Shown here: positions 9,282-19,770 of the stretch, in pieces
Numbering within the stretch: position 1 is the first letter of the stretch
How the letters are laid out: every line of letters begins with the position of its first letter
Assembly (NCBI GenBank): GCA_043719295.1
Contig: JAYSUD010000001.1
Span: 97,700 to 161,699 of the forward strand
DNA length: 64,000 bases
Origin: a bacterium
GTDB taxonomy: Bacteria > Patescibacteriota > Minisyncoccia > Phycocordibacterales > UBA918
Reading direction: 5' to 3'
Translations under genes and position numbers: made by a program
Notes under the pieces: generated by a model
Told to the model about the DNA's origin: nothing
Database searches by the model: none
What the model saw: the letters and a program-made list of their open reading frames with translations, nothing else

Positions 9282-9354
9282 GGGCCAATAGCTCATTTGG
9301 TAGAGCGCTTCACTTGCACTGAAGAGGCGGGGGGTTCGAATCCTCTTTGGTCCA
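9282..9354 (+). tRNA. tRNA-Ala (anticodon UGC)
   Basis: Manual cloverleaf fold. Acceptor GGGCCAA/TTGGTCC with the G3:U70 alanine identity pair. D-arm GCTC-ATTTGGTA-GAGC. Anticodon stem CTTCA/TGAAG with loop CTTGCAC. T-arm GGGGG-TTCGAAT-CCTCT (two G:U pairs). Discriminator A; CCA not encoded. Confidence 0.85.
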
Positions 9355-9421
9355 CAAACTGTAGGGCTCAAATGCGAATGCATTTGAGCCCTTTACAGTT
9401 TGCGACCAAAGAGGATTCGAA
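9335..9421. repeat. ~87-nt near-perfect palindrome whose left arm is the T-loop/acceptor 3' half of tRNA-Ala
   Basis: Left arm TTCGAATCCTCTTTGGTCCACAAACTGTAGGGCTCAAATGC; loop GAAT; right arm GCATTTGAGCCCTTTACAGTTTGCGACCAAAGAGGATTCGAA. About 38 bp of pairing with one small internal loop. Confidence 0.8.
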
Positions 9422-9564
9422 AGACGCAAGCCGGGGCCCCTCTGGGAGCGGCGGTAAAACAGTATCGGAATACTGTTTTACGGGTCGAGAGTACTTACTA
9501 GAATTGGAGCGAAGCGAACAATTATAGTTAAATAAAACTTTCTGGGAGATAGTTTTATCGTGAC

Positions 9565-9584
9565 CGATTCCTCTTTGGTCCACA
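9565..9584 (+). repeat. Direct repeat of the tRNA-Ala 3' end (candidate attR-like site)
   Basis: CGATTCCTCTTTGGTCCACA versus the tRNA 3' end CGAATCCTCTTTGGTCCACA (9337..9356): 19/20 identical, 228 bp apart. Region 9420..9730 is rich in GC hairpins (AAAACAGTAT-CGGA-ATACTGTTTT; GGGCTTC...GAAGCCC). Confidence 0.7.
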
Positions 9585-9805
9585 CCTTACTTCAAGTAAA
9601 AATATAAAACGATAGCCCTCAAAAGTGGGCTTCCTCAGAGGCCGAAGCCCTAATGCATTTATAATATTCTCAAGTAGATCGGAGTCAAGATATCGTACTG
9701 TGCTTAAATACCCAAAAACTCACCAATAACCGTGAAAAACTACAAAACTTCGTCTTTTTTCACGATTATCATTGACATAATCGTGAAAATTACTATAATA
9801 TTGAT

Positions 9806-10693
9806 ATGTCACGTATACCAAAAACGCATACTGCTATATTGTCGCTCCGTGAGCGGTTTTACAAAGCATTGCCTGGTAAAGAATCTTTACTCCAAATCAT
9901 TAATGAAATTGAAGTATCTGAGCATGTATACAACTCAAACGCCATAGAAAATAGTACGCTAACTTTAGAAGAAACTGAAAAAATTCTTCAGGAGATTGAT
10001 CTATCTCGATATGTGAGTGAAAGAGAATTATTTGAAGCAAAAAACTTAGCTCTGGTAATGAAGTATATAGAAAAGAAGGCTAAAGTGACTGATCCGTCAA
10101 AAGATGTGCTTCTCCTCCTTCATAAAATGTTGCTAGGTAATATTAAGGAAGATATTGCAGGTCGATTTCGGATGCCAACTGAATGGGTGAAAGTCGGAAA
10201 TTATATAGCTGCAAACCCAGCTGATGTCACAAAATTACTTGATTCGATGTTAATTTGCCTACAAACAAACAATCAGGAAAATATCATAAAACGAATTGCA
10301 GAACTTCATCTCACCTTTGAACACATTCACCCATTTTGCGACGGCAATGGTCGAATTGGACGAGTGCTCAACAACTTCATTTTGCTAAAAGAAGGGTATG
10401 TTCCAATTAATATCGCATTTGCTAATAGAGCTGATTATTATGCAGCGTTCAGAAAATTTGATGCTGATGGTGATGTAAGTCTGATGGAAGTAATTGTAGG
10501 TCGTGCATTAACAAACAGTTATCATAAACGACTTGCGTATCTTGAGGGTAAAAAAATTGTGACGTTAAATGAATTTGCAAAAAGCCACAAGCTCTCCATT
10601 TCGAATTTAATCAATAAAGCTCATCGCCAAACAGTTGAAGCTTTTATTGAAAAGGGTGTCTGGAAAATTGCTGATTCATACAAAGTAAAATAA
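9806..10693 (+). CDS. Fic family protein (AMPylation/adenylyltransferase domain)
   Basis: Canonical Fic motif HPFCDGNGRIGR (HxFx[DE]GNGRxxR). Confidence 0.85.
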   Translation: MSRIPKTHTAILSLRERFYKALPGKESLLQIINEIEVSEHVYNSNAIENSTLTLEETEKILQEIDLSRYVSERELFEAKNLALVMKYIEKKAKVTDPSKDVLLLLHKMLLGNIKEDIAGRFRMPTEWVKVGNYIAANPADVTKLLDSMLICLQTNNQENIIKRIAELHLTFEHIHPFCDGNGRIGRVLNNFILLKEGYVPINIAFANRADYYAAFRKFDADGDVSLMEVIVGRALTNSYHKRLAYLEGKKIVTLNEFAKSHKLSISNLINKAHRQTVEAFIEKGVWKIADSYKVK

Positions 10694-10722
10694 TCTTTAC
10701 CAACCTTGGTAGCTTCCATCAT

Positions 10723-11016
10723 ATGCCCCTCCAACAAACACTTATTTTCATCTTAATCCTCATAAACACTATCTCATTCTTTGTAGTAGCAAACGACAAA
10801 CGGAAGGCAATGCAGAGAGGTGACTCCGAACGCATCCCTGAAGGGCTAATCTTCTTCCTAGCTACTGCCTTCGGCAGTATTGGTGTATACGCCAGCATGC
10901 TCATATTCCGCCACAAAACCCGCAAATGGTACTTTCAGGTGGGTATTCCACTCCTAATTTTGCAAAATATAGCATTGCTGTATCTCATCAATGCTTATTT
11001 TGCATTGTATGTTTAG
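10723..11016 (+). CDS. DUF1294-like small membrane protein
   Basis: 97 aa, three TM segments. A paralogous C-terminal fragment lies at 12102..12266 (FGSIGVYASMLIFRHKTRKWYFQVGIPLLILQN). Confidence 0.55.
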   Translation: MPLQQTLIFILILINTISFFVVANDKRKAMQRGDSERIPEGLIFFLATAFGSIGVYASMLIFRHKTRKWYFQVGIPLLILQNIALLYLINAYFALYV

Positions 11017-11046
11017 TGATTATTTAACTGTAGTATACTGAGCATT

Positions 11047-12048
11047 ATGACTGATCATCCAAAAAACTCACAAATTGTAATTTACAAAACTCCTACTGGT
11101 GAGACTAAAATTGATGTCCGGTTTGATGGTGCTACTGTATGGCTCAGTCTTGAACAAATGGCTGAGTTATTCGGTAAAGCAAAATCAACTATAAACGAGC
11201 ATGTTCTCAATATTTTTACTGAAGGTGAGCTCAAAGAATCCTTAGTTTTACAGAAAATCGGAAATTCCGATTTTCTTGAAAAACCAACAAATTACTACAA
11301 TCTTGATGTCATTATTTCAGTTGGGTATAGGGTAAAGTCACTTCAAGGTACTAGATTTCGACAATGGGCGACAGAGAGACTTTCTGAGTATATTGTAAAA
11401 GGCTTTGTTATTGATAGTGAGCGATTAAAAAATCCAGATGTTCCCTTTGATTATTTCGAAGAATTAGAGCGAACAATTGCTGACATTCGTTCGAGTGAAA
11501 AGAGGTTTTATCGAAAGATAACTGATATTTATGCCACCAGCGTTGATTATGATCCAACTAATGACCATAGTCTACTTTTTTTTAAAACAGTACAAAATAA
11601 AGTTCACTTTGCTATAACTGGTAATACAGCTGCAGAAATCGTCGTCGACAGGATAGACGAGCAAAAACCAAATCTTGGTTTAACCTACACGAGAGGTGTA
11701 AAACCAACAAAAGAAGAAATTTCAATCGCAAAAAATTATTATTCGCAAGAAGAGTTGCTTCAACTCAATGCTTTAGTAGAACAATACTTAGTTTTCGCCA
11801 CAGAACAAGCTCGGCGACGGGTATCGATGACTATGCAGGATTGGATAGATAAATTACATGGTTTTCTGAATCTTAACGAACGGGACATTTTAACCGACGC
11901 TGGAAAAATCTCTCATGAAATGATGATTGAAATTACGAATGAAAAGTTTGATCATTATAAAACTAGACAATCAACTATAGATACTGAGTTTGATGATACA
12001 GTGCTTAAAGTACTAGAACAGATCGGTAAAGATGCTTCAAGTAAATAA
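11047..12048 (+). CDS. Virulence-protein RhuM family protein (COG3943/DinD-like)
   Basis: N-terminal RhuM signature: IVIYKTPTGETKIDVRFDGATVWLSLEQMAELFGK...NEHVLNIFTEGEL...NLDVIISVGYRVKSLQGTRFRQWATERL. Confidence 0.8.
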   Translation: MTDHPKNSQIVIYKTPTGETKIDVRFDGATVWLSLEQMAELFGKAKSTINEHVLNIFTEGELKESLVLQKIGNSDFLEKPTNYYNLDVIISVGYRVKSLQGTRFRQWATERLSEYIVKGFVIDSERLKNPDVPFDYFEELERTIADIRSSEKRFYRKITDIYATSVDYDPTNDHSLLFFKTVQNKVHFAITGNTAAEIVVDRIDEQKPNLGLTYTRGVKPTKEEISIAKNYYSQEELLQLNALVEQYLVFATEQARRRVSMTMQDWIDKLHGFLNLNERDILTDAGKISHEMMIEITNEKFDHYKTRQSTIDTEFDDTVLKVLEQIGKDASSK

Positions 12049-12101
12049 CAAGACAAACGCATATCTACATCCCCCAGCAGCCTAAAACGCACCTAGACAC
12101 A

Positions 12102-12266
12102 CCATTCTTCATGGCCGCCGCCTTCGGCGCCATAGGTGTCTACACCGCCATACTCTTCTTCCGCCACAAAACAAGAAAGTGGTACTTTCAAATAGGGATT
12201 CCGCTCCTTATTATCCAGAACTTAGCCGCCGCCTACACCACATGGCAATTTGTCTTTATAAATTGA
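12102..12266 (+). pseudogene. GC-rich fragment (C-terminal ~55 codons) of a second DUF1294 gene
   Basis: Translation PFFMAAAFGAIGVYTAILFFRHKTRKWYFQIGIPLLIIQNLAAAYTTWQFVFIN* aligns to the C-terminus of the 10723..11016 protein. No plausible N-terminus. Codons are strongly GC3-rich (gccgccgccttcggcgcc), unlike the AT-rich host. Confidence 0.6.
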
Positions 12267-12298
12267 GAAAACAGGGCTTAAGTGCTACTCTTTAAGTA

Positions 12299-14686
12299 AT
12301 GAATCTCTACGAAACGCTCCAGCTTGCCAAAAGTGAGGAAGATGTGAAAGATGCGTACATAAAAGCGCTTGGGCTTAAGACTTTTTCTAAAGGTCTTATT
12401 GATATTCAAACAAAAGAAATTTGGTTTGAAGCAAAAGATAAAAGCAACACTACTACATACAAGATGCTCACGCAGCTCTTGCACTATGTGAAGCAATGGA
12501 TGGAACACGGTGAAGAGATTCCGCCATTTTTGTGTGCGATTGATACCGAAAAAGCAGCAATCATGAAAACTGCAGACGCACTGCCACTGTTTGAACGGAA
12601 GGACATCAAGTGGGGAAAGTCTGCAAGTGACGTTACTCCTGAAGCGCTTGAGGCTGTCTCAACATTTATTGGTACACGTTTTGTCTCCTACCGCATCGCA
12701 ACCCACGAACAGGAGTTTATTGATGCAGTAAAAACAGCAATTAAAAACGGCGACATCATCCGTACTGAAATCAAACCAGCAAACATCAAGTCTGTTTTCG
12801 ACAAGTGGGTAGACATGATTGGAAAAGAGATTGGTGACGTTGCGCCAGAGAAGTACGCACTCCTTTTCTTTGCCGACATCATGCATGACGGCACAGTTTC
12901 AACACATAAAGACCTTCCTGCAGAACTCTTGTACAAAGACGGACAACCTGTGTTTCTTCTTGAGGGTAAACTCTATGAACTTGGGAACAAAGAAGGGTAC
13001 CGTCAGTTCTGGGCAATCTACCATAAACCACCACGAGAAGAGCACCGAAACGCAATGCTCGAACGACGTGACACACTCATTCCGTACGACGAACGGAGTT
13101 TTAAAGGTGCCTACTACACCCCACTTCACGTAGTGGATAAAGCGTACGACAAACTCACTGAAACGCTGGGTGACAATTGGCAAGATGAGTACATTGTGTG
13201 GGATATGTGTTGCGGAGTGGGGAACCTCGAAGTTAAACACTCAAACCACCGTAACCTTTACATGTCGACACTCGACCAAGCAGACATCGACGTAATGAAA
13301 GCAACAAAAACCTGCGCAGCTGCAGAACGTTTTCAATATGACTATTTAAATGATGATATTACTGACGATGGAAAGATTGACTACTCACTTACAAATAAAG
13401 TTCCTGCGGGACTTCGCAAAGCAATAGCCGATGGCAAGAAAATTCTAGTGCTCATAAACCCACCATATGCGGAAGCTGGTGAGGGTATTGGAGAAGGAAA
13501 TAAAGAAAAAGTTGCTAAGACAAAGTTCTCAGCTACTGCAATGGAAAACTGGGGGAAAGCAAGTAATGAATTATTTACGCAATTCGTAGCTCGCATTTCA
13601 CAAGAAATACCAACTGCAACTCTCGCAATGTTCAGTAAATTAAAATATGTTAATGCACCTAATTTTGAAAAATTTAGACAAGCATGGAATTCGGAATACT
13701 TAGATGGATTTATTGTCCATAGTAAAGCATTTGATGGTCTAAAAGGACTATTTCCAATTGGTTTCCTTATCTGGAAAACATATCCTGATTCAAAAGATAA
13801 ATTCGAAATAACTGAAGTTACAACTGATGTTTTAGATAAATATGCTTTACCAATTGGAGCAAAGAAATTCTATAATTTACCCAATGACGCTTTTTTAAAC
13901 AAGTGGTTAGATAGACCAAAACCAAACACTACAGAAGTAGTACCTTTAAAAAACACAGTGTCAGTATCAACTGCTCAAAACACTGTAACTCTTTCAAAAT
14001 GGTCAGATGGGGCAGTTGGGTATTTTTTCTGTGACAGCAATGACTTCCAAAATGCAGCACAGTCAACAGTATTACTTTCTTCTACATATTTTAAAGGGCA
14101 TGGCTTTTATATAACTGAAGATAACTTATGGCAGTCATCGATAATCTTTTCAGTGCGTCGCTTAATTAAACCAACTTGGCAAAACGATCGTGATCAATTC
14201 TTACAACCAACAGGTGAGCTCACTGACGAATTCAAAAATGATTGTCTTATATGGATACTATTTAATGGAAGTAACTTAACAGCAAGTGCAAATGACCTTG
14301 AATGGAACGACAAAAAGTGGTCAATTGTAAATCATTTTATTCCGTACACTGAAAGTGAAGTTGGAGCGCCAGGACGTTTTGAAAGTGACTTTATGGTGGG
14401 GTACATGAAAGACAAAGTGTTTTCAGAGAAAGCACAGGCGGTACTCGCAGATGGGAAGAAGCTTTGGAGTGCATACTTTGAACACACCGACCCACACACC
14501 GTCCGCGAAGAACTCAAGCTCAACCGCCCCGACGTCGGCTGGTACCAAATCCGCAACGCGCTGAAGCGCCGCAACGAAAGTGGCGACTACAACCCCATCT
14601 CATTCACCGAGTTTGAAACCACCTACAAACTCCTCACCGAAAAACTCCGTCCCCAAGTGTATAGTCTTGGTTTCCTAAAAGAATAA
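12299..14686 (+). CDS. Type IIG/IIL restriction-modification enzyme, MmeI-like (fused PD-(D/E)xK endonuclease, N6-adenine methyltransferase and target-recognition domain)
   Basis: N-terminal nuclease motif IDIQTKEIWFEAKDK (D...ExK). gamma-class N6-MTase motifs FKGAYYTPLHVVD (motif I/X region) and LINPPY (motif IV, NPPY). 795 aa, a single polypeptide with no separate S or R gene. Confidence 0.7.
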   Translation: MNLYETLQLAKSEEDVKDAYIKALGLKTFSKGLIDIQTKEIWFEAKDKSNTTTYKMLTQLLHYVKQWMEHGEEIPPFLCAIDTEKAAIMKTADALPLFERKDIKWGKSASDVTPEALEAVSTFIGTRFVSYRIATHEQEFIDAVKTAIKNGDIIRTEIKPANIKSVFDKWVDMIGKEIGDVAPEKYALLFFADIMHDGTVSTHKDLPAELLYKDGQPVFLLEGKLYELGNKEGYRQFWAIYHKPPREEHRNAMLERRDTLIPYDERSFKGAYYTPLHVVDKAYDKLTETLGDNWQDEYIVWDMCCGVGNLEVKHSNHRNLYMSTLDQADIDVMKATKTCAAAERFQYDYLNDDITDDGKIDYSLTNKVPAGLRKAIADGKKILVLINPPYAEAGEGIGEGNKEKVAKTKFSATAMENWGKASNELFTQFVARISQEIPTATLAMFSKLKYVNAPNFEKFRQAWNSEYLDGFIVHSKAFDGLKGLFPIGFLIWKTYPDSKDKFEITEVTTDVLDKYALPIGAKKFYNLPNDAFLNKWLDRPKPNTTEVVPLKNTVSVSTAQNTVTLSKWSDGAVGYFFCDSNDFQNAAQSTVLLSSTYFKGHGFYITEDNLWQSSIIFSVRRLIKPTWQNDRDQFLQPTGELTDEFKNDCLIWILFNGSNLTASANDLEWNDKKWSIVNHFIPYTESEVGAPGRFESDFMVGYMKDKVFSEKAQAVLADGKKLWSAYFEHTDPHTVREELKLNRPDVGWYQIRNALKRRNESGDYNPISFTEFETTYKLLTEKLRPQVYSLGFLKE

Positions 14687-14726
14687 CTTAGTTGACTGCA
14701 AAAATACTAGGCGTATATTATAGAAG

Positions 14727-15053
14727 ATGACAATCTCAAAAAATACACCTCTAAAAGGACAGTTTCGACATATTGTATTTAAAGACAAAGGTGTTTGGTA
14801 TGCAGTTGCACTTGAATTTAATATTGTCGAATCTAGTGATGATCCACGATTGGCGTACTTCAACCTACTACAAGCTGTTGACGGGTATATTGCTGCTATG
14901 CGGAAAATTAAGGGTGCTCGTAATTTCTCGCCCCTCAATCAGCCACCAGCGAAAGAGTACCAAGAGCTGTGGAATCAATTGAATTCTAATAAACCAGTAA
15001 AATCACCTTATCAAGTAAACTCTTTTGGAGTTTCTTCAACTACACATGCCTAA
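14727..15053 (+). CDS. hicB: HicB-like antitoxin (UPF0150/DUF1902 RNase H-like fold)
   Basis: 108 aa; VWYAVALEFNIVESSDDPRLAYFNLLQAVDGYIAA resembles the HicB N-domain. Overlaps the HicA gene immediately downstream. Confidence 0.45.
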   Translation: MTISKNTPLKGQFRHIVFKDKGVWYAVALEFNIVESSDDPRLAYFNLLQAVDGYIAAMRKIKGARNFSPLNQPPAKEYQELWNQLNSNKPVKSPYQVNSFGVSSTTHA

Positions 15054-15273
15054 GAAGTTGCATAATTGGAAGTTTAGAGAGGTTGAGCGTTTTTTAAAGA
15101 ATAATGACTTTGTACTCCATCACACAAATGGTAGTCATTACTATTACATTGGCAACAGTGAGCATCTTGTATGCGTTCCATATCACGGAAGTATTGCAAT
15201 TAAAACACGCACTATGAAAGGAGTAATCACACAATCAGGTATTTCACAAAATGATTGGCTAAAAGATACGTAA
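15046..15273 (+). CDS. hicA: HicA family mRNA interferase toxin
   Basis: MPKKLHNWKFREVERFLKNNDFVLHHTNGSHYYY: YcfA/HicA fold with the GSH motif. Start taken at MPKK; the listed ORF has an 8-codon upstream extension. Confidence 0.65.
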   Translation: MPKKLHNWKFREVERFLKNNDFVLHHTNGSHYYYIGNSEHLVCVPYHGSIAIKTRTMKGVITQSGISQNDWLKDT

Positions 15274-15405
15274 ACTGTACACTTTAAATATAGCTAATAA
15301 GGAAACTCGCAATGCATTTGTTGTAGGAATGTCAGAAGATGACGCAATTGCTCAGATTTCAATGAGTAAGTAGCTTATTTCTGTAAACTTACTGAACTTT
15401 GAAAT

Positions 15406-15446
15406 AATAAATCCCCTAAGTTTATGCTTCTAGGGGATTTATTTGT
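15406..15446. terminator. Bidirectional intrinsic terminator
   Basis: AAATAAATCCCCTAAG-loop-CTAGGGGATTTATTTG, a perfect stem flanked by A/T runs, between the hicA 3' end (+) and the small minus-strand gene. Confidence 0.6.
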
Positions 15447-15447
15447 T

Positions 15448-15570
15448 TTACTTCTTATCTCGTCTCTGTCGAAGAGCAGAAGCAGCTGCTGTTTTTGAGT
15501 TCTTACCAGTACTACCACTTTTCAGTACTTTTGAAGCAGCTTTACCGGCTTTCTTTGATGTTTTTGCCAT
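15448..15570 (-). CDS. Small basic 40-aa protein (unannotated short ORF)
   Basis: MAKTSKKAGKAASKVLKSGSTGKNSKTAAASALRQRRDKK; ATG 15568..15570, TAA 15448..15450. Terminator hairpin immediately 3'. Below the ORF-track size cut-off. Confidence 0.35.
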   Translation of the reverse strand: MAKTSKKAGKAASKVLKSGSTGKNSKTAAASALRQRRDKK

Positions 15571-15705
15571 TGTTTAAACACACGTTTACATCAGTCGACT
15601 TCCACCTTATGTGGCCTGATATTTTCATTATATCACACGCTGACAAGTTAACACTATACACAGTAAACTTGTAAAGATTCAAAAAAAGAGTAGTATACTG
15701 TTCTT

Positions 15706-16431
15706 ATGACTACTTGGATACAAAACAAACGTCAATCAGTAGGTTTATCTCAAACTGAAGTTGCAGAAAGTTTGGGTATTTCTCGACCGACGTATATAAA
15801 ACTTGAACGGGGGATTGCTGAACCTACAGAACACCAGAAGGCAATTCTTGCGAGTCTTTTTGATGTATCACGGGAGACTGTGACAAAAAAATCACTAGAG
15901 ACAGTGGGAGTTTCAAATGCAGTCTATGTAAAGGAAGTGCCTAAGGAGAACGTACAAAAGTTTGAGCAGGTATTACTCTATATAGTGAGTAAAGTGGGAA
16001 GTCGCCCAAATATTGGTCAGACTGCACTCTATAAACTGCTGTATTTTATTGATTTTGATTATTACGAAAAGTATCAGGAATATTTGATTGGCGCTGTGTA
16101 CATTAAAAACACTCATGGTCCAAGTCCTGTGTCGTTTGCTAAGATTGCGCGTAACCTAGAGACGTCGGGGAAACTTGTGTTGGTGCAGAGTAAATACTTT
16201 GGATTTGACCAGAAAAAGTATCTAGTAACCAGCGATACGGTAGTTTCTTATTTAAGTGCGCAGGAGCTTAAACATATTGACGATGAACTAGAACGACTTG
16301 CTTCAAAAAGCGCAAAGGAGCTTTCTGACCTATCACACATTGATACTCCATGGCGTGTTGCAAAGGAAAAGCAAGTTTTAAATTATCGTCATGCATTCTA
16401 TCGACCCGATGAAACTTCTGTAGTTGAATAA
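15706..16431 (+). CDS. XRE-family HTH / Panacea (DUF4065, SocA-like) domain antitoxin
   Basis: N-terminal HTH QSVGLSQTEVAESLGISRPTYIKLERG. C-terminal DUF4065-like core GQTALYKLLYFIDFDYYEKYQEYLIGAVYIKNTHGPSPVSF. Confidence 0.65.
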   Translation: MTTWIQNKRQSVGLSQTEVAESLGISRPTYIKLERGIAEPTEHQKAILASLFDVSRETVTKKSLETVGVSNAVYVKEVPKENVQKFEQVLLYIVSKVGSRPNIGQTALYKLLYFIDFDYYEKYQEYLIGAVYIKNTHGPSPVSFAKIARNLETSGKLVLVQSKYFGFDQKKYLVTSDTVVSYLSAQELKHIDDELERLASKSAKELSDLSHIDTPWRVAKEKQVLNYRHAFYRPDETSVVE

Positions 16432-16777
16432 ATTGTCTATGAGTATGTTTTCAGTGTTGCCAGAATTTGAGAAAGAATTAAAAAAGCTTTCAAAAAAATA
16501 TCCAACATTGCCTTCTGATATTGAAGACATTAAACCTATCCTTGAAGAGACTAAAACAGGAATTGGAAAAAATTTTACGATTATTGCAACTGCTAAAGAT
16601 GTTCAGATTGTAAAAGTGCGAATTTTGTGTGAATCACTCCGCTCAAGAACAGTGCGACTTATCTACGCGTACCATAAAAACAAAATTGAGTTTATGTATA
16701 TCGAGATATATTTTAAAGGTGATACAGAGAATGAAGATAAATCTAGAATTAAAGAATATTTAGAAGGACTCAGTTAG
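16424..16777 (+). CDS. RelE/ParE-superfamily-like toxin (putative partner of the Panacea antitoxin)
   Basis: Overlaps the upstream gene by 8 nt. FEKELKKLSKKYPTLPSDIEDI...RTVRLIYAYHKNKIEFMYIEIYFKGD resembles the RelE/StbE pattern F.K.LKKL...YRiIY...I.Il.Ig.R.D. Confidence 0.45.
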   Translation: MNKLSMSMFSVLPEFEKELKKLSKKYPTLPSDIEDIKPILEETKTGIGKNFTIIATAKDVQIVKVRILCESLRSRTVRLIYAYHKNKIEFMYIEIYFKGDTENEDKSRIKEYLEGLS

Positions 16778-16850
16778 AATGCAACAAATCAACTGCTAAA
16801 ATATAATATACAGGTCTAGTCTCTCTAAGTGTGAAGAAAATAACATAAAA

Positions 16851-17381
16851 CTATTTTTTCACCCCAACAAACTCGTTCAGCATTGCTAAGTATTGATCGG
16901 TGACTTTTTTAGGGATTTTAGGGTGAGTAAATGGTTTGATTACTCCTTTGTTCTTAATGATGGTGTCTACTTGATCAAAATAGAACCCCTGTGGTGTAGC
17001 GATAAATAATGCAGCGTTACGCCATGAACGTTCTATCTCTTTTGCTATTGCGTTCACTTTGCCGTTGGTACGAGTAGCCATGTACTTTATTTCTACAAGT
17101 GTCACATTGTGATTTTCTTCATTTACAATGGCATAGTCGGGAGCTTTACGAACAATCTCTATCATTGCCCGAGCGTCTGCACTTTGTTTCGCTTTTGCAA
17201 GTTGATGTACTACTTTTTCATACCCAAATTCTAGAACGGTATATCCTTTAGTGTTGTGAATCATTTGTTCAAATATAATTTCTGCAATTTTCCCCTTAAT
17301 AAGCTCGTGTGTAAATTTTATGTTGTTCATATACGGTAAGTATACTCCCGACTTCAGACTGGTAATGATACGAATCCCCAC
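16851..17381 (-). CDS. Hypothetical small PD-(D/E)xK nuclease-like protein
   Basis: Ordered motifs E(F)GYE ... APDYAIV ... LVEIKY (PD-x12-ExK). Divergently arranged from the RhuM-Doc gene. An alternative start MNNIKF at 17330 is possible. Confidence 0.4.
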   Translation of the reverse strand: MGIRIITSLKSGVYLPYMNNIKFTHELIKGKIAEIIFEQMIHNTKGYTVLEFGYEKVVHQLAKAKQSADARAMIEIVRKAPDYAIVNEENHNVTLVEIKYMATRTNGKVNAIAKEIERSWRNAALFIATPQGFYFDQVDTIIKNKGVIKPFTHPKIPKKVTDQYLAMLNEFVGVKK

Positions 17382-17406
17382 GTCCTTATCGTGCTACCAT
17401 TAACTC

Positions 17407-18414
17407 ATGATAAAAAAATCTACCAAAACCGAATTGGTTATTTTTAAGGGAAGTAAGGGGCAGGTTAAGCTTCGAGGAGATTTTCATAATGATACGTTGT
17501 GGGCGACACAAGCCGAGATTGCTGAATTATTCGATGTGGATGTTCGAACAATAAATGAGCACCTCAAGAATATCTACCGTACTGAAGAACTGTCAAAAAA
17601 AGCAACTATCCGGAATTTCCGGATAGTTAAAACAGAAGGAAATCGAAACGTCGAGCGTGATGTTTTTCACTATAATTTGGATGCAATAATTTCAACTGGA
17701 TATCGTGTAAATAGCAAAAAAGCTACTCAATTCCGCCAATGGGCAACAAATGTTGTAAAGTTACATATTACTGATGGCTTCACCATCAACAAAAGCCGTA
17801 TCGCCACCAACTATGAGGACTTTATGAAGGCAGTTACCCTTGTAAAGAATCTTGCTCCAAAGAGGAGTAATGTCGATACAGAATCGGTTCTTGAACTTGT
17901 ACAGCTTTTTGCTGACACGTGGTTCTCCCTTGATGCGTATGATAAAGAAGCGCTTGCTCCGGGAAAGGTTAATAAAAAGAAAGTTAAACTGACTTCTGTA
18001 GAATTCTTGGAAAATGTGACTGTACTCAAAGGCGAGCTCATACGAAAAGGAGAAGCTACAGAAAACTTTGCTTTAGAACGCAATCGTGAAGCAGTTGAGG
18101 GTATTATCGGTAACGTGATGCAGAGCTTTGGTGGGAAAGAAGTGTACCCGACAATAGAAGAGAAAGCGGCACACTTGATGTACTTTATCATCAAGAATCA
18201 TCCGTTTGTTGATGGTAACAAACGTACGGGTGCCTATGCATTAGTCTGGTTCTTGCAAAAGATGAAAGTGCTTGATATACATCGTCTATCGCCAACTGCA
18301 CTTACGGCACTCACACTCCTTGTAGCGGAAAGTAATCCAAAAGACAAAGAAAAAGTGGTAGCACTTGTGGTCTTACTGATAGCAGGACCAATACAGAAAA
18401 ATCGGAAGAAGTAA
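17407..18414 (+). CDS. RhuM N-terminal domain fused to a C-terminal Doc/Fic toxin domain
   Basis: N-terminal LWATQAEIAELFDVDVRTINEHLKNIYRTEEL...NLDAIISTGYRVNSKKATQFRQWATN aligns to the RhuM at 11047. C-terminal HPFVDGNKRTG matches the Doc motif HxFx(D/N)GNKR. Confidence 0.75.
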   Translation: MIKKSTKTELVIFKGSKGQVKLRGDFHNDTLWATQAEIAELFDVDVRTINEHLKNIYRTEELSKKATIRNFRIVKTEGNRNVERDVFHYNLDAIISTGYRVNSKKATQFRQWATNVVKLHITDGFTINKSRIATNYEDFMKAVTLVKNLAPKRSNVDTESVLELVQLFADTWFSLDAYDKEALAPGKVNKKKVKLTSVEFLENVTVLKGELIRKGEATENFALERNREAVEGIIGNVMQSFGGKEVYPTIEEKAAHLMYFIIKNHPFVDGNKRTGAYALVWFLQKMKVLDIHRLSPTALTALTLLVAESNPKDKEKVVALVVLLIAGPIQKNRKK

Positions 18415-18415
18415 C

Positions 18416-19027
18416 ATGTTCCCAAAAAGCTCAAATGAATACAAACTACTTTCTAAACTCAATACACCTCAAAAGGTGCAGACTTTCTTGGAATCTATTC
18501 CCTTTAACCATGAGGAAAATGGGATGACGTGCAGGTCGGGGTATCTCGCTTTAAAAGAGAATAAGGCACACTGTATCGAAGGAGCGTTTATTGGAGCTTT
18601 TGCATTACACTTGCAAGGCAGAGATGCAACACTTGTGAGTTTAAAAGTGAAGAAACCTGATGATGATCACGTTATTGTACTTTTTAAAGAAAACGGTTTC
18701 TACGGAGCGTTAAGCAAAACAAACCACCCCGTGCTTCGCTATCGCGATCCTGTGTACAAAACAGTTCGTGAACTCGTTATGTCGTACTTTCATGAGTATT
18801 TTTTATATACAAATGGAAAGAAAACACTTCAAGGCTACACTAAGCCCATTAACTTAAAGCGCTATGGCACAAAATGGATAACAGGAGAAGAAGATGTGTG
18901 GGAGATTGGAAACGATATTTATAATCTACCAATAATCACCATCGTTCCTGACGCAAACAAACACCTCCTTCGTAACGCAACTCAATTTGAACGTACTTCA
19001 CTTGATGTGCAAGAGTGGAAGCAATAA
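18416..19027 (+). CDS. Hypothetical protein co-transcribed with the RhuM-Doc gene (Cys/His/Asp, papain-like or transglutaminase-like?)
   Basis: ATG 2 nt after the Doc gene stop. Conserved-looking order GMTCRSGYLAL ... DDDHVIVLF ... D, compatible with a Cys-His-Asp triad. Fold is unassigned. Confidence 0.4.
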   Translation: MFPKSSNEYKLLSKLNTPQKVQTFLESIPFNHEENGMTCRSGYLALKENKAHCIEGAFIGAFALHLQGRDATLVSLKVKKPDDDHVIVLFKENGFYGALSKTNHPVLRYRDPVYKTVRELVMSYFHEYFLYTNGKKTLQGYTKPINLKRYGTKWITGEEDVWEIGNDIYNLPIITIVPDANKHLLRNATQFERTSLDVQEWKQ

Positions 19028-19154
19028 AGCAAGGTAGTATCTTTTAAATTTCATTTTCAGTATCTGGTTTAAGTTCAGAAAATCAGTTTTATTATACTTG
19101 TGTCAAAATTGTATCAATGCTTTAATTCCTGTTGGTTCAAAACAGGGGACTCCA

Positions 19155-19622
19155 ATGTTTGAGACATTCATCGACTTCTCGGTAAACGGTAGAGACTATA
19201 GTGATTGGGTCTTGTTGGTTAATCGCCTTGCTATCGGGTTGTTCTGTGCAATTTCGTGTTTTCACAAGCTCTTTGTCAAAGAAAGACAAGAACAACTTGT
19301 GCAAACACTTATCGCGTGCAAGATACCTTTTGTGAGTTTTTGCAGATGGTTTGTGCCACTGGTTGAGTTCTTTGGTGGTTTAGCTGTAATTTCTGGTGTT
19401 CTCGCACCACTTGCAGCACTTGGACTACTGATAATTTTCTTGGTCGCTTTGTATACTGAAGGACCCAAGAGAATTAAGGAGTTCAAACCCATCAACGCTG
19501 CTGACTACTTGGATGATGTTCTCTATTTGTCTGAAACAACGTACGTGGTGATGGCATTGTTCGTTATGTTCATTGGTACGGGGAAGTACACCTTTATGTG
19601 GGTTGTTATACTCCTTTTCTAA
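19155..19622 (+). CDS. DoxX family membrane protein
   Basis: Four TM helices, with DoxX-like segments LLVNRLAIGLFCAISCFHKLF and LVEFFGGLAVISGVLAPLAALGLLIIFLVALY. Start taken at MFETF. Confidence 0.55.
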   Translation: MFETFIDFSVNGRDYSDWVLLVNRLAIGLFCAISCFHKLFVKERQEQLVQTLIACKIPFVSFCRWFVPLVEFFGGLAVISGVLAPLAALGLLIIFLVALYTEGPKRIKEFKPINAADYLDDVLYLSETTYVVMALFVMFIGTGKYTFMWVVILLF

Positions 19623-19651
19623 CCAGTTTTGTTATTTATAGGTAGTGATGT

Positions 19652-19682
19652 GTGCTCCTGCAATTTGGCAGGAGCATTTTTG
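19652..19682 (+). terminator. Intrinsic terminator
   Basis: TGCTCCTGC-AATTTG-GCAGGAGCA followed by TTTTT. Confidence 0.6.
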
Positions 19683-19770
19683 ATATTTAATGTATAGATA
19701 TACACAGATCTCAACTTTATGTGTTATCAAAAAGTACATTTGTACTTGTTTGTACGTGATACCATTAAGT

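Follow-up and report, generated by a model that had tools for sequence, protein, structure and literature searches.

A mosaic restriction-modification gene and a truncated DUF1294 copy in a variable defence island downstream of tRNA-Ala

Introduction

The window considered here, a stretch of 64,000 nucleotides of bacterial DNA, carries next to a tRNA-Ala gene a variable island in which the gene for a 795-residue restriction-modification (RM) protein is a mosaic at the protein level: both of its arms match a CPR clade, and its middle matches a Bacteroidota-type allele. Just upstream of this gene lies the remnant of a second DUF1294 gene, which begins exactly where a RhuM gene stops. The observed composition, island status, synteny, protein-level mosaicism and pseudogene anatomy are probably best read as a stack of old recombination scars in a variable defence island downstream of tRNA-Ala, on a chromosome that synteny with Parcubacteria-labelled contigs and one named homologue suggest to be Parcubacteria-like (CPR). 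How much of such a history can be told from base composition? An initial annotation of this DNA had pointed to recombination and to a RhuM gene lying between two DUF1294 copies, and was right in both; its junction sites, its contrast of host-like with donor-like DNA and the flanking GC-rich segment in which it set the RM gene have to be given up.

An Island Beside tRNA-Ala

The conserved left anchor of the island is a tRNA-Ala(UGC) gene at 9282-9355 on the forward strand (ARAGORN; Rfam tRNA, 64.7 bits). Beyond it, ~10.2 kb of defence and toxin-antitoxin genes (~9590-19755; Fic, RhuM, RhuM-Fic, HicA and Xre-SocA) are absent from a syntenic relative, L083. The latter matches the window up to 9358, with 84% nucleotide identity at the tRNA and 80-82% in UvrA/UvrC, and resumes at 19764, with just ~1.4 kb of unrelated DNA between the equivalents of these two positions. 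The same tRNA-Ala follows UvrA-UvrC-UDPGdh-Ddl in L083, L173, L174 and L176, and the order UvrA-UvrC-UDPGdh-Ddl-tRNA-Ala-DUF1294 is found in L173-L177, which are Parcubacteria-type contigs; in these relatives DUF1294 natively comes right after tRNA-Ala. Another contig, L179, ends directly after Ddl. In L082 a type I RM operon lies 72 nt past the DUF1294 gene, so that there, too, an RM system sits downstream of DUF1294. The early division into host-like and donor-like DNA therefore breaks down, since the whole block is an island that L083 does not have, and DUF1294 is native next to tRNA-Ala.

Composition is given below as GC3 (third-codon-position GC) and C3 (C at third positions); host genes have a GC3 of 0.30, a C/(C+T) of 0.32 and a G/(G+A) of 0.29. 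Host-like codon composition is found in the Fic/DOC-family gene at 9806-10693 (forward strand; PF02661, E=1.7e-18; PADLOC PDC-S04/SoFic), with C/(C+T)=0.27. Immediately downstream of the RM gene, a 108-aa ORF with no family match is paired with a HicA toxin gene (14727-15273, forward strand; Pfam HicA, E=2e-10), and the pair is AT3-rich (C/(C+T)=0.25). From its position upstream of HicA, which it overlaps, the 108-aa ORF may be HicB-like, and a comparable ORF-HicA pair follows the RM homologue in L075.

No integrase is present among the island ORFs. The 3'-end of the tRNA is repeated at 9565-9584, 228 nt downstream, with an inverted copy at 9404-9421; no direct repeat of it was found near 19750, and the repeat thus does not mark both ends. 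In E. coli, prophage e14 leaves a displaced icd 3' end. The present locus resembles tRNA-adjacent islands (e.g., e14/icd) in its variable content, its place at a tRNA gene and its absence from a relative, but unlike the integrative islands of this kind it has neither an integrase nor flanking direct repeats at its ends.

Two Copies of DUF1294

The intact DUF1294 gene (copy a, 97 aa; 10723-11016, forward strand) covers the whole domain, i.e., profile positions 1-55 of 55 in PF06961 (E=7e-18, 65 bits). Its GC (0.42), GC3 (0.50) and C3 (0.35) all exceed the host baseline, and its C/(C+T) is 0.60, so it is not the AT-rich gene it had been taken for. It is followed by the RhuM-family gene (11047-12048, forward strand; PF13310, E=9e-97; PADLOC PDC-S05, E=4e-123), which is AT3-rich (C/(C+T)=0.23) and ends with a stop codon at 12046-12048. 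DUF1294 homology starts again at 12049, the base after this stop, at about codon 22, and the second copy (copy b, 12049-12266, forward strand) is therefore without about its first 21 codons. Direct reading, a three-way DNA alignment with L082 and copy a, and a partial Pfam match show an in-frame TAG at 12094-12096, then a 4-nt deletion that shifts the frame, and finally a 3' part (12099-12266) that is still open and C3-rich. With a match to PF06961 limited to positions 28-55 of 55 (E=1.4e-7, 32.1 bits for a cut-off of 25), copy b falls short of the whole 55-position domain and is a pseudogene fragment of a family member. A GC-rich DUF1294 remnant had been recognized from the start; it is however more than the C-terminal ~55 residues then described, as it begins at 12049, in another frame and with a TAG on the way.

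The two copies share a repeat of 122 nt with 75% identity, and copy b is 73% identical in amino acids to residues 44-87 of copy a; over the 44 aligned codons its GC3 is 0.70 and its C3 0.57. As in remnant-bearing islands, an intact and a truncated, diverged copy of one small gene bracket a cargo, here RhuM; unlike the e14/icd case, the two DUF1294 copies are only 73-75% identical. The scar would have formed when DNA reaching precisely to the RhuM stop became fused to codon ~22 of another, diverged DUF1294 gene, leaving this 5'-truncated copy directly upstream of the RM gene, with the frameshift arising later. Inserted DNA may have regenerated a DUF1294 target, or two islands may have been joined by deletion. 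The RM start codon lies 32 nt past the stop of copy b. The idea that DUF1294 travels with the RM gene was rejected, tblastn having found none adjoining the other fetched loci of RM homologues.

A Single-chain RM Protein

The 795-aa gene (12299-14686, forward strand) encodes a putative single-polypeptide RM enzyme with a type IIL-like fold. The product is a member of a large, highly conserved and unannotated family present across many phyla. It has no Pfam family at E<=0.01 and its 164-aa N-terminus has no Pfam match, while weak MTase_II/Alw26I matches, and nothing stronger, cover aa 265-392. The fold is like that of the type IIL enzymes DrdV and MmeI, with ~10-12% identity in structural alignments. 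The chain is shorter than DrdV, 795 aa as against 1012-1016 residues in the DrdV chains, and MmeI has a length of about 919 aa. When all PDB chains, including MmeI (5hr4) and DrdV (7lo5), were searched with phmmer and a profile hmmsearch, no RM match was obtained at E<=1. The MmeI family is defined by whole-length similarity to MmeI with a BLAST expectation below 1e-20 (Morgan et al., 2009; PMC2731913), a similarity that the 795-aa protein does not have. The likeness to MmeI is one of fold, and finds no counterpart in sequence similarity.

Like the type IIL enzymes MmeI and DrdV, the protein unites in one polypeptide a candidate N-terminal PD-ExK-like motif, a gamma-class N6-adenine methyltransferase domain with motif I and NPPY, a variable region (the putative TRD) following on the same chain, and a helical C-terminal domain. 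The N-terminal PD-(D/E)xK residues of MmeI are D70, E80, and K82 (PMC2731913); here D35-X8-E44-A-K46 is invariant across 48 homologues, and E44 lies on a beta strand of the predicted structure. As in type IIL enzymes, there is no separate methyltransferase gene and no conserved neighbour, the flanking genes being different in the window, L166, L167, and L170. A conserved downstream partner gene was considered and rejected, the 191-aa and 174-aa downstream ORFs not being common to the loci. The MmeI family is strongly conserved overall yet has a variable recognition region, and its specificity evolves rapidly (PMC2731913); the first two of these traits are shared by the family described here. 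The MmeI family is further characterized by cutting ~20 nt from its site and by protection through methylation of a single strand.

A Mosaic Gene

The nearest relatives of the RM gene change along its length. The 5' arm (12299-13297) is of clade A, the CPR type: it is 88-100% identical in amino acids to P0002, P0007, P0013, and P0018, for a family median of 65-80%, and its best nucleotide matches (0.77-0.86) are from Kaiserbacteria (L001), Saccharibacteria (L063), and Parcubacteria (L005). In L075 the shared part is limited to 12299-13308. The middle (13298-14386), which carries NPPY and the putative TRD, is of clade B, with 75-95% amino acid identity to P0011, P0020, P0022, and P0030 vs. 30-70% to clade A, and it is closest to a Ginsengibacter/Bacteroidota allele. 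Its nucleotide identity is 0.72-0.86 to L170 vs. 0.48-0.77 to L166/L167, and at synonymous codons L170 stays the closer match until about aa 700. The 3' tract (14387-14638), part of the conserved helical C-terminal domain, is again clade-A-like in amino acid identity (0.85-0.93).

With four reference-protein pairs, the maximum chi-square method gave two breakpoints, at aa ~345-394 and ~605-628, with values of 87-111 and none of 100 permutations as extreme. Agreement with clade A extends to a fraction of about 0.9 of the sites in the N-terminal part, 0.1-0.18 in the middle and 0.7 in the C-terminal part; sites backing alternative relatives are clustered and separated by breakpoints, as in a recombinant gene. 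The early suggestion that the RM gene had been rebuilt by recombination is in this respect borne out. The junctions are however internal to the gene (~13298, ~14387, and ~14638) and not where they had been drawn, 12048/12049 being a separate event, and the AT-rich middle looks host-like in composition yet is phylogenetically discordant with the rest of the gene. The second protein breakpoint precedes the GC3 change point at 14387 by ~200-280 nt, and the block between the two is too conserved to place the junction more finely.

Separate similarity searches of the pieces had been expected to name the donor lineages. Over 80 species-representative genomes, 80 metagenome loci and the closest database proteins (genome contigs with the full protein, metagenome contigs with the C-terminal 96 aa, and the contigs of P0002, P0007, and P0011), the best nucleotide identity in any segment was 0.82-0.86; nothing was above 86%, and the search turned up no near-identical donor. 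With synonymous sites this close to saturation, either the events are old or their donors were missed by the sampling, and the data give them no direction. Furthermore, the N-terminal arm and the 3' tract are both clade-A-like and yet differ in GC3 (0.47 and 0.70), which does not fit a single “backbone” source: three sources or more, or else some additional process, must be assumed.

In the history that we favour, the N-terminal arm and the C-terminal domain would come from a CPR-type clade of the RM family, and the central ~1.1 kb, which spans the NPPY motif and the variable region, from another clade, of Bacteroidota type. The exchange may have used two strongly conserved blocks (aa ~260-360 and ~620-700) in which diverged alleles can recombine homologously. 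It would amount to a swap of the recognition module, and should change the DNA sequence recognized. The order and direction of the events, the donors and the change in specificity are what we infer from these patterns. They recall mosaic genes in general, and the TRD swapping and domain shuffling of Type I HsdS and of Type IIG/IIL/IIB enzymes, in which a recognition module is replaced via conserved flanking blocks and segments differ in nearest relatives and base composition; TRD-based diversification has been described in Type I systems (PMC5399793). Contrary to known cases, the partners here span phyla (CPR arms and a Bacteroidota-like middle), all segments are old and no donor can be named because synonymous sites are near saturation, and an extra short C3-only tract matches no domain boundary.

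Third-position Composition

The uneven GC that first drew attention to the gene is confirmed by quantitative GC3, which is far from uniform: a change-point fit gives 0.47 (12299-13297), 0.23 (13298-14386), 0.70 (14387-14638), and 0.27 (14639-14683), and passing from one to three segments raises the log-likelihood by 36. In the first 1 kb GC is 0.44 and GC3 0.47, and every host ORF is lower (maximum 0.38), so that the description of the rest of the gene as AT-rich holds for ~13298-14386 and fails for its first 1 kb. The GC-rich 3' end is real, and no other coding stretch of the window is as extreme in composition: its top 60-codon window has a GC3 of 0.75 and a C3 of 0.65, whereas 1159 such windows in the other long ORFs have a mean GC3 of 0.303 (sd 0.074, maximum 0.517) and a mean C3 of 0.158 (maximum 0.333). 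C3 jumps at 14474, and AT3-rich codons resume at 14639, ahead of the stop codon. The tract is therefore not the edge of a flanking GC-rich segment, as had been proposed, but an in-frame internal ~250 nt of the gene's own conserved C-terminal domain.

Both patches, the DUF1294 remnant and the 3' tract, are high in C (0.31-0.39) and low in G (0.16-0.18). Against 0.32 in host genes, C/(C+T) reaches 0.88 in the tract and 0.77 in the remnant, while G/(G+A) is just 0.42 and 0.35 vs. 0.29. What was called GC-richness is thus mainly a choice of C for T at third positions, and not a general GC enrichment.

In the family as a whole (44 homologues from low-GC hosts and 22 from high-GC hosts), GC3 is on average higher in the N- and C-terminal arms than in the middle, a regional landscape that is not tied to residue conservation. 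Since the low GC3 of the middle is family-wide, the step from 0.47 to 0.23 is not in itself evidence of a local splice; it would rather travel with the modules, the arms being richer in GC3 than the middle whatever the host. The sharp 3' step, in contrast, is specific to the gene of the window. From aa 631-700 to aa 725-781 GC3 rises by 0.48, for a mean of -0.015 in 154 homologues (sd 0.082, maximum 0.18), and the tract lies above all 44 homologues from low-GC hosts (z=2.8-4.4). The homologous tract has a C/(C+T) of 0.78 in L001 and 0.75 in L005, with a G/(G+A) of 0.25 and 0.19; by a rough count check, C ends 37 of the 42 pyrimidine-ending codons here and 29 of 37 in L001, and the tract is not significantly more C-biased than that of L001. 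These nearest relatives have the same C-only style in the same place. The tract is probably an extra, lineage-specific discontinuity, most simply either a short conversion tract or a retained remnant, with an unsampled CPR-type allele of strong NNC codon preference as its source.

Alternative Explanations

Could the steps in GC3 come from the assembly itself? A contig path switching between co-occurring alleles in conserved stretches, whether as an assembly or as a strain chimera, would make them artefacts, and the Logan assembly of the same run does break inside the RM gene, at 12832 and 14536, a possible sign of strain variation. Its contig L081 is 100% identical to the window over 9501-12832, and L172 is identical over 14536-15568; between them, and covered by neither, falls 12833-14535, including both internal junctions and the 5' edge of the 3' tract. 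The RM family is abundant, its conserved blocks could share k-mers, and both homologue contigs (e.g., P0007) and the syntenic relative L084 come from sample ERZ27315211. We nevertheless regard a chimera as unlikely. The unitig ends coincide with none of the change points (13298, 14387, 14474, and 14638), neither the reading frame nor any invariant residue is disrupted at the junctions, L081 links the 5' arm to RhuM, DUF1294, and Fic, and L172 links the C3-rich tract from 14536 on to the AT-rich downstream genes; moreover, the sampled alleles differ by 14% or more at the nucleotide level, which makes shared long k-mers unlikely. The model of the initial annotation, in which the DUF1294 remnant and the GC-rich 3' end edge one higher-GC acquired segment into which an AT-rich RM gene was inserted, can call on the C-only style common to both pieces and on the 32 nt that separate the remnant's stop from the RM start. 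It is nonetheless unlikely: the 3' tract is in frame and, with 85-93% amino acid identity to clade A, is the family's own C-terminal domain, AT3-rich codons return before the stop, the 5' kb of the RM gene is elevated in GC3 too, and none of the other fetched RM-homologue loci showed a DUF1294 gene beside it. The strong form is thus rejected, the tract belonging to the RM gene, while a weaker form that overlaps with our preferred history survives, with a joint arrival of copy b and a clade-A RM gene and a later replacement of the middle.

It is just as unlikely that no lineage-specific recombination took place and that the gene entered the island with a compositional landscape intrinsic to its family. 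The GC3-rich arms seen in hosts of any GC, the C3-rich tract at the same place in L001 and L005, and a C bias not significantly above that of L001 all agree with such an inheritance, but the size of the 3' step, beyond that of any of the 154 homologues, does not, nor does a tract that exceeds all 44 low-GC-host homologues; in addition, the A/B/A switch of protein clades is significant and specific to the allele of the window. Local selection on the nucleic acid, for a Rho-loading (rut-like) stretch at the gene's end and past RhuM, a structured RNA, an antisense gene or accurate translation, is very improbable, even though both patches are C-rich and G-poor and an 80-aa antisense ORF is open at 14332-14574. 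A structured RNA was rejected with folding z-scores of 0.05 and -0.40 and no Rfam family match, and the antisense ORF because its frame is kept in just 5 of 65 homologues and is interrupted in both L001 and L005. Within each region, conserved and variable columns have an equal C/(C+T), which excludes selection for translational accuracy, and no excess of promoters or terminators was found.

Implications

A mosaic RM gene and an island scar are the ordinary way for such islands to evolve, and the finding leaves the current understanding of RM-gene and island evolution unchanged. It does show that base composition, taken by itself, puts the labels “host” and “foreign” on the wrong DNA at this locus, where the AT-rich, host-looking middle is the discordant module and the GC-richer remnant is of a natively placed gene family. 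It also draws attention to a conserved anchor, tRNA-Ala then DUF1294, with variable defence genes next to it in CPR-type genomes (the window and L082), and to a very large, conserved, and wholly unannotated family with a DrdV/MmeI-like fold, whose swapped recognition modules would be good material for specificity engineering or methylome prediction.

One further process, which we hold to be a long shot, is GC-biased gene conversion, or another recombination-linked bias, acting in CPR bacteria too on those blocks of a mobile defence gene that are conserved and hence recombine. The reading starts from the GC3-rich and specifically C-rich arms of the family and from a non-recombining recognition module that is AT3-rich in every host, and the ~250-nt C3-only tract could be a fresh example of the same process. 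If true, composition would here report the recombination rate, and not donor ancestry.

The 795-aa Protein and its Family

In the island beside tRNA-Ala, three items are to be told apart: a module swap within an RM gene, a short C3-rich tract in the same gene, and a separate scar at the junction between RhuM and DUF1294. This kind of evolution is well known, while the gene family itself is new and unannotated. The 795-aa product matches more than 5392 database proteins, with full-length identities of 58–81% across the CPR, Bacteroidota, Campylobacterota, Alpha-, Beta- and Gammaproteobacteria, Spirochaetes, and Planctomycetota, and very strong purifying selection acts on the family. It is found in at least eight phyla, and all of its members are annotated as “hypothetical.” The protein has no Pfam family, and neither its sequence alone nor a profile of 48 members finds a sequence match in the PDB. 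Its fold is DrdV/MmeI-like.

Three motifs are invariant in the family: D35-X8-E44-A-K46, DMCCGVGNLE (302–311), and NPPY (387–390). No conserved neighboring or partner gene accompanies the gene across the loci compared, and on the basis of the motifs and of this isolation the protein is predicted to work like a single-chain type IIL/IIG RM enzyme. The label “MmeI-like” given in the initial annotation holds for the architecture. However, the MmeI family is defined by a sequence criterion (PMC2731913) which places the 795-aa protein outside it, so the label does not extend to family membership.

A Mosaic RM Gene

The 795-aa gene is a mosaic of two allele groups: clade A, made up of the CPR alleles P0002, P0007 (Kaiserbacteria MAG), P0013, and P0006 (Saccharibacteria MAG), and clade B, made up of P0011 (Ginsengibacter), P0020, P0022, and P0030. 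Over residues 1–260 identity to clade A is 88–100% (family median 65–80%) and clade B is not closest; over residues ~380–620 clade A falls to 30–70% and clade B reaches 75–95%; over residues 721–795 the values are 85–93% for clade A and 68–80% for clade B. Maximum chi-square tests with two breakpoints, applied to four pairs of references, put the switches at aa 345–394 and 605–628, with 0/100 permutations as extreme. Recombination had rightly been proposed for this region, and these A/B/A switches at the protein level correspond to a swap of the putative recognition module within a type IIL-like RM gene. The comparison locus L075 has only 12299–13308 in common with the window. The first switch falls together with a GC3 change at 13298, and the second lies 200–280 nt upstream of another at 14387. 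The intervening block (aa 621–700) is too conserved to be resolved at the protein level, and until about aa 700 its synonymous codons agree slightly better with the clade-B reference. No sampled sequence exceeds 0.82–0.86 nt identity in any segment, and even proteins that are 96% identical match at only about half of their synonymous codons; either the exchanges are old or sampling has missed the donors.

Third-Position Composition

The mean GC of the window is 38.7%, and in 60-codon windows the long host ORFs have a GC3 of 0.303 ± 0.074 (maximum 0.517) and a C3 of 0.158 ± 0.057 (maximum 0.333), with the 3′ part of the 795-aa ORF peaking at GC3 0.75 and C3 0.65. A likelihood change-point fit splits this ORF into four parts, 12299–13297 (GC3 0.47), 13298–14386 (0.23), 14387–14638 (0.70), and 14639–14683 (0.27), and the jump in C3 is at 14474. 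The compositional observation in the initial annotation is largely correct, but its details on the AT-rich parts are not: since GC3 in the first kb of the ORF is higher than in every host ORF (maximum 0.38), “otherwise AT-rich” describes the middle of the RM gene only. Its junctions must also be moved to the change points at 13298, 14387, and 14638, inside the RM gene, and its assignment of host and donor DNA, like its picture of an insertion into a GC-rich segment, needs revision.

Among 79 homologues, GC3 is generally higher in the two terminal parts than in the middle, both in low-GC hosts (about 0.37, 0.22, and 0.34 for the N-terminal, middle, and C-terminal parts) and in high-GC hosts (about 0.70, 0.50, and 0.68). 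In their codon alignment (loci L001–L080), the variable middle that is AT3-rich relative to both arms covers aa ~390–620. Third-position bias in the family is regional. Because it is both regional and family-wide, the step from 0.47 to 0.23 is a property of the modules and no evidence for a splice in this genome; the landscape itself may be due to separate module pools or to recombination-linked bias.

The 3′ GC3 step (aa 631–700 vs. aa 725–781) is +0.48 in this gene and averages −0.015 in 154 homologues (sd 0.082, maximum 0.18), and the tract at 14387–14638 stands above 44/44 homologues of low-GC hosts (z up to 4.4). The enrichment consists of third-position C chosen over T, with C/(C+T) at 0.88 in the tract vs. 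0.32 in host genes and a small shift in G/(G+A) (0.42 vs. 0.29). At the same position the nearest relatives, L001 and L005, have C/(C+T) of 0.78 and 0.75 and G/(G+A) of 0.25 and 0.19, and this common C-only style points to a CPR-type source with an NNC preference rather than to a generally GC-rich donor.

ALTERNATIVES

As causes of the C-rich tract, an antisense ORF and a structured RNA or known RNA family were rejected, as was accuracy selection, C/(C+T) being equal at invariant and variable codons within each region of the 795-aa family. A rut-like role of the C-rich, G-poor stretches is a candidate reading of low probability. Chimeric assembly within 12833–14535 would fit the Logan contigs, which stop at 12832 and resume at 14536, but these ends differ from the compositional change points, and the Logan contig L172, starting at 14536, carries the rest of the tract together with the AT-rich genes that follow it, which leaves such an artifact improbable.

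The RhuM/DUF1294 Junction

The DUF1294 remnant reported initially is real, being matched by Pfam and 73% identical in amino acids to the intact copy (10723–11016). It is C3-rich (C/(C+T) 0.77). The intact copy is not AT-rich as had been stated, since its GC3 (0.50) and C/(C+T) (0.60) are above the host baseline. In an alignment with the intact copy and the DUF1294 gene of contig L082, the closest full-length relative, homology of the remnant starts at 12049, the very next base past the RhuM stop codon (12046–12048), with CAAGACAAACGC (QDKR) at about codon 22 of DUF1294. This starting frame ends at a TAG (12094–12096), after which a 4-nt deletion shifts the remnant into the frame noticed at first; 12049–12266 is thus a 5′-truncated, frameshifted DUF1294 pseudogene. 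The junction is not the peculiarity of one assembler, since window 9501–12832 recurs at 100% identity in an independent Logan contig from run SRR23617205.

The Island at the tRNA-Ala Locus

The order UvrA-UvrC-UDPGdh-Ddl-tRNA-Ala is common to the window and to the related contig L083 (80–82% nt identity for UvrA and UvrC), where the homologue of window 19764 lies at most 1.4 kb past the tRNA; window ~9590–19755 is therefore a ~10-kb island. Among its genes are Fic, the intact DUF1294 copy, RhuM, the DUF1294 pseudogene, the 795-aa RM gene, a 108-aa ORF with HicA after it, Xre-SocA, and a fusion of RhuM and Fic, but no integrase. In more distant syntenic contigs (one labeled Parcubacteria), the order runs UvrA-UvrC-UDPGdh-Ddl-tRNA-Ala-DUF1294, so DUF1294 appears to be a native anchor gene of the locus.

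In L082 a type I RM operon begins 72 nt past DUF1294, and this second, independent contig thus also carries an RM system just downstream of that gene. In this stretch (L082 6001–12276) the operon is complete, with HsdM, DUF3800, HsdS, and HsdR. None of the other RM-homologue loci retrieved showed DUF1294 beside its counterpart of the 795-aa gene. In L174–L178 (5400–6450), Parcubacteria-type contigs sharing the UvrA to tRNA-Ala-DUF1294 synteny, an rve-family transposase/integrase gene lies ~500 nt downstream of DUF1294; its presence there is consistent with an insertion hotspot.

The 3′ end of tRNA-Ala (9337–9356) has a 19/20 direct repeat at 9565–9584, which may be the relic of an old attachment site; the repeat copy (9559–9588) also occurs in L083. 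A perfect 18-nt inverted copy at 9404–9421 forms a long hairpin that yields spurious miRNA matches in Rfam.

Three related genes of the island are a Fic gene (9806–10693), a full RhuM gene (11047–12048), and a RhuM N-terminal part fused to a Fic/DOC domain (17407–18414; PADLOC PDC-S23), and RhuM genes adjoin the RM homologue in loci L018, L020, and L037. Xre-SocA (Panacea antitoxin-like) and the next, 117-aa ORF (15706–16777) are a conserved pair, found at 54–72% aa identity beside RM homologues in a Saccharibacteria and a Nomurabacteria contig (L027 3992–5060 and L055 10427–11483), which suggests a toxin-antitoxin module that occurs together with RM genes of this family in CPR islands.
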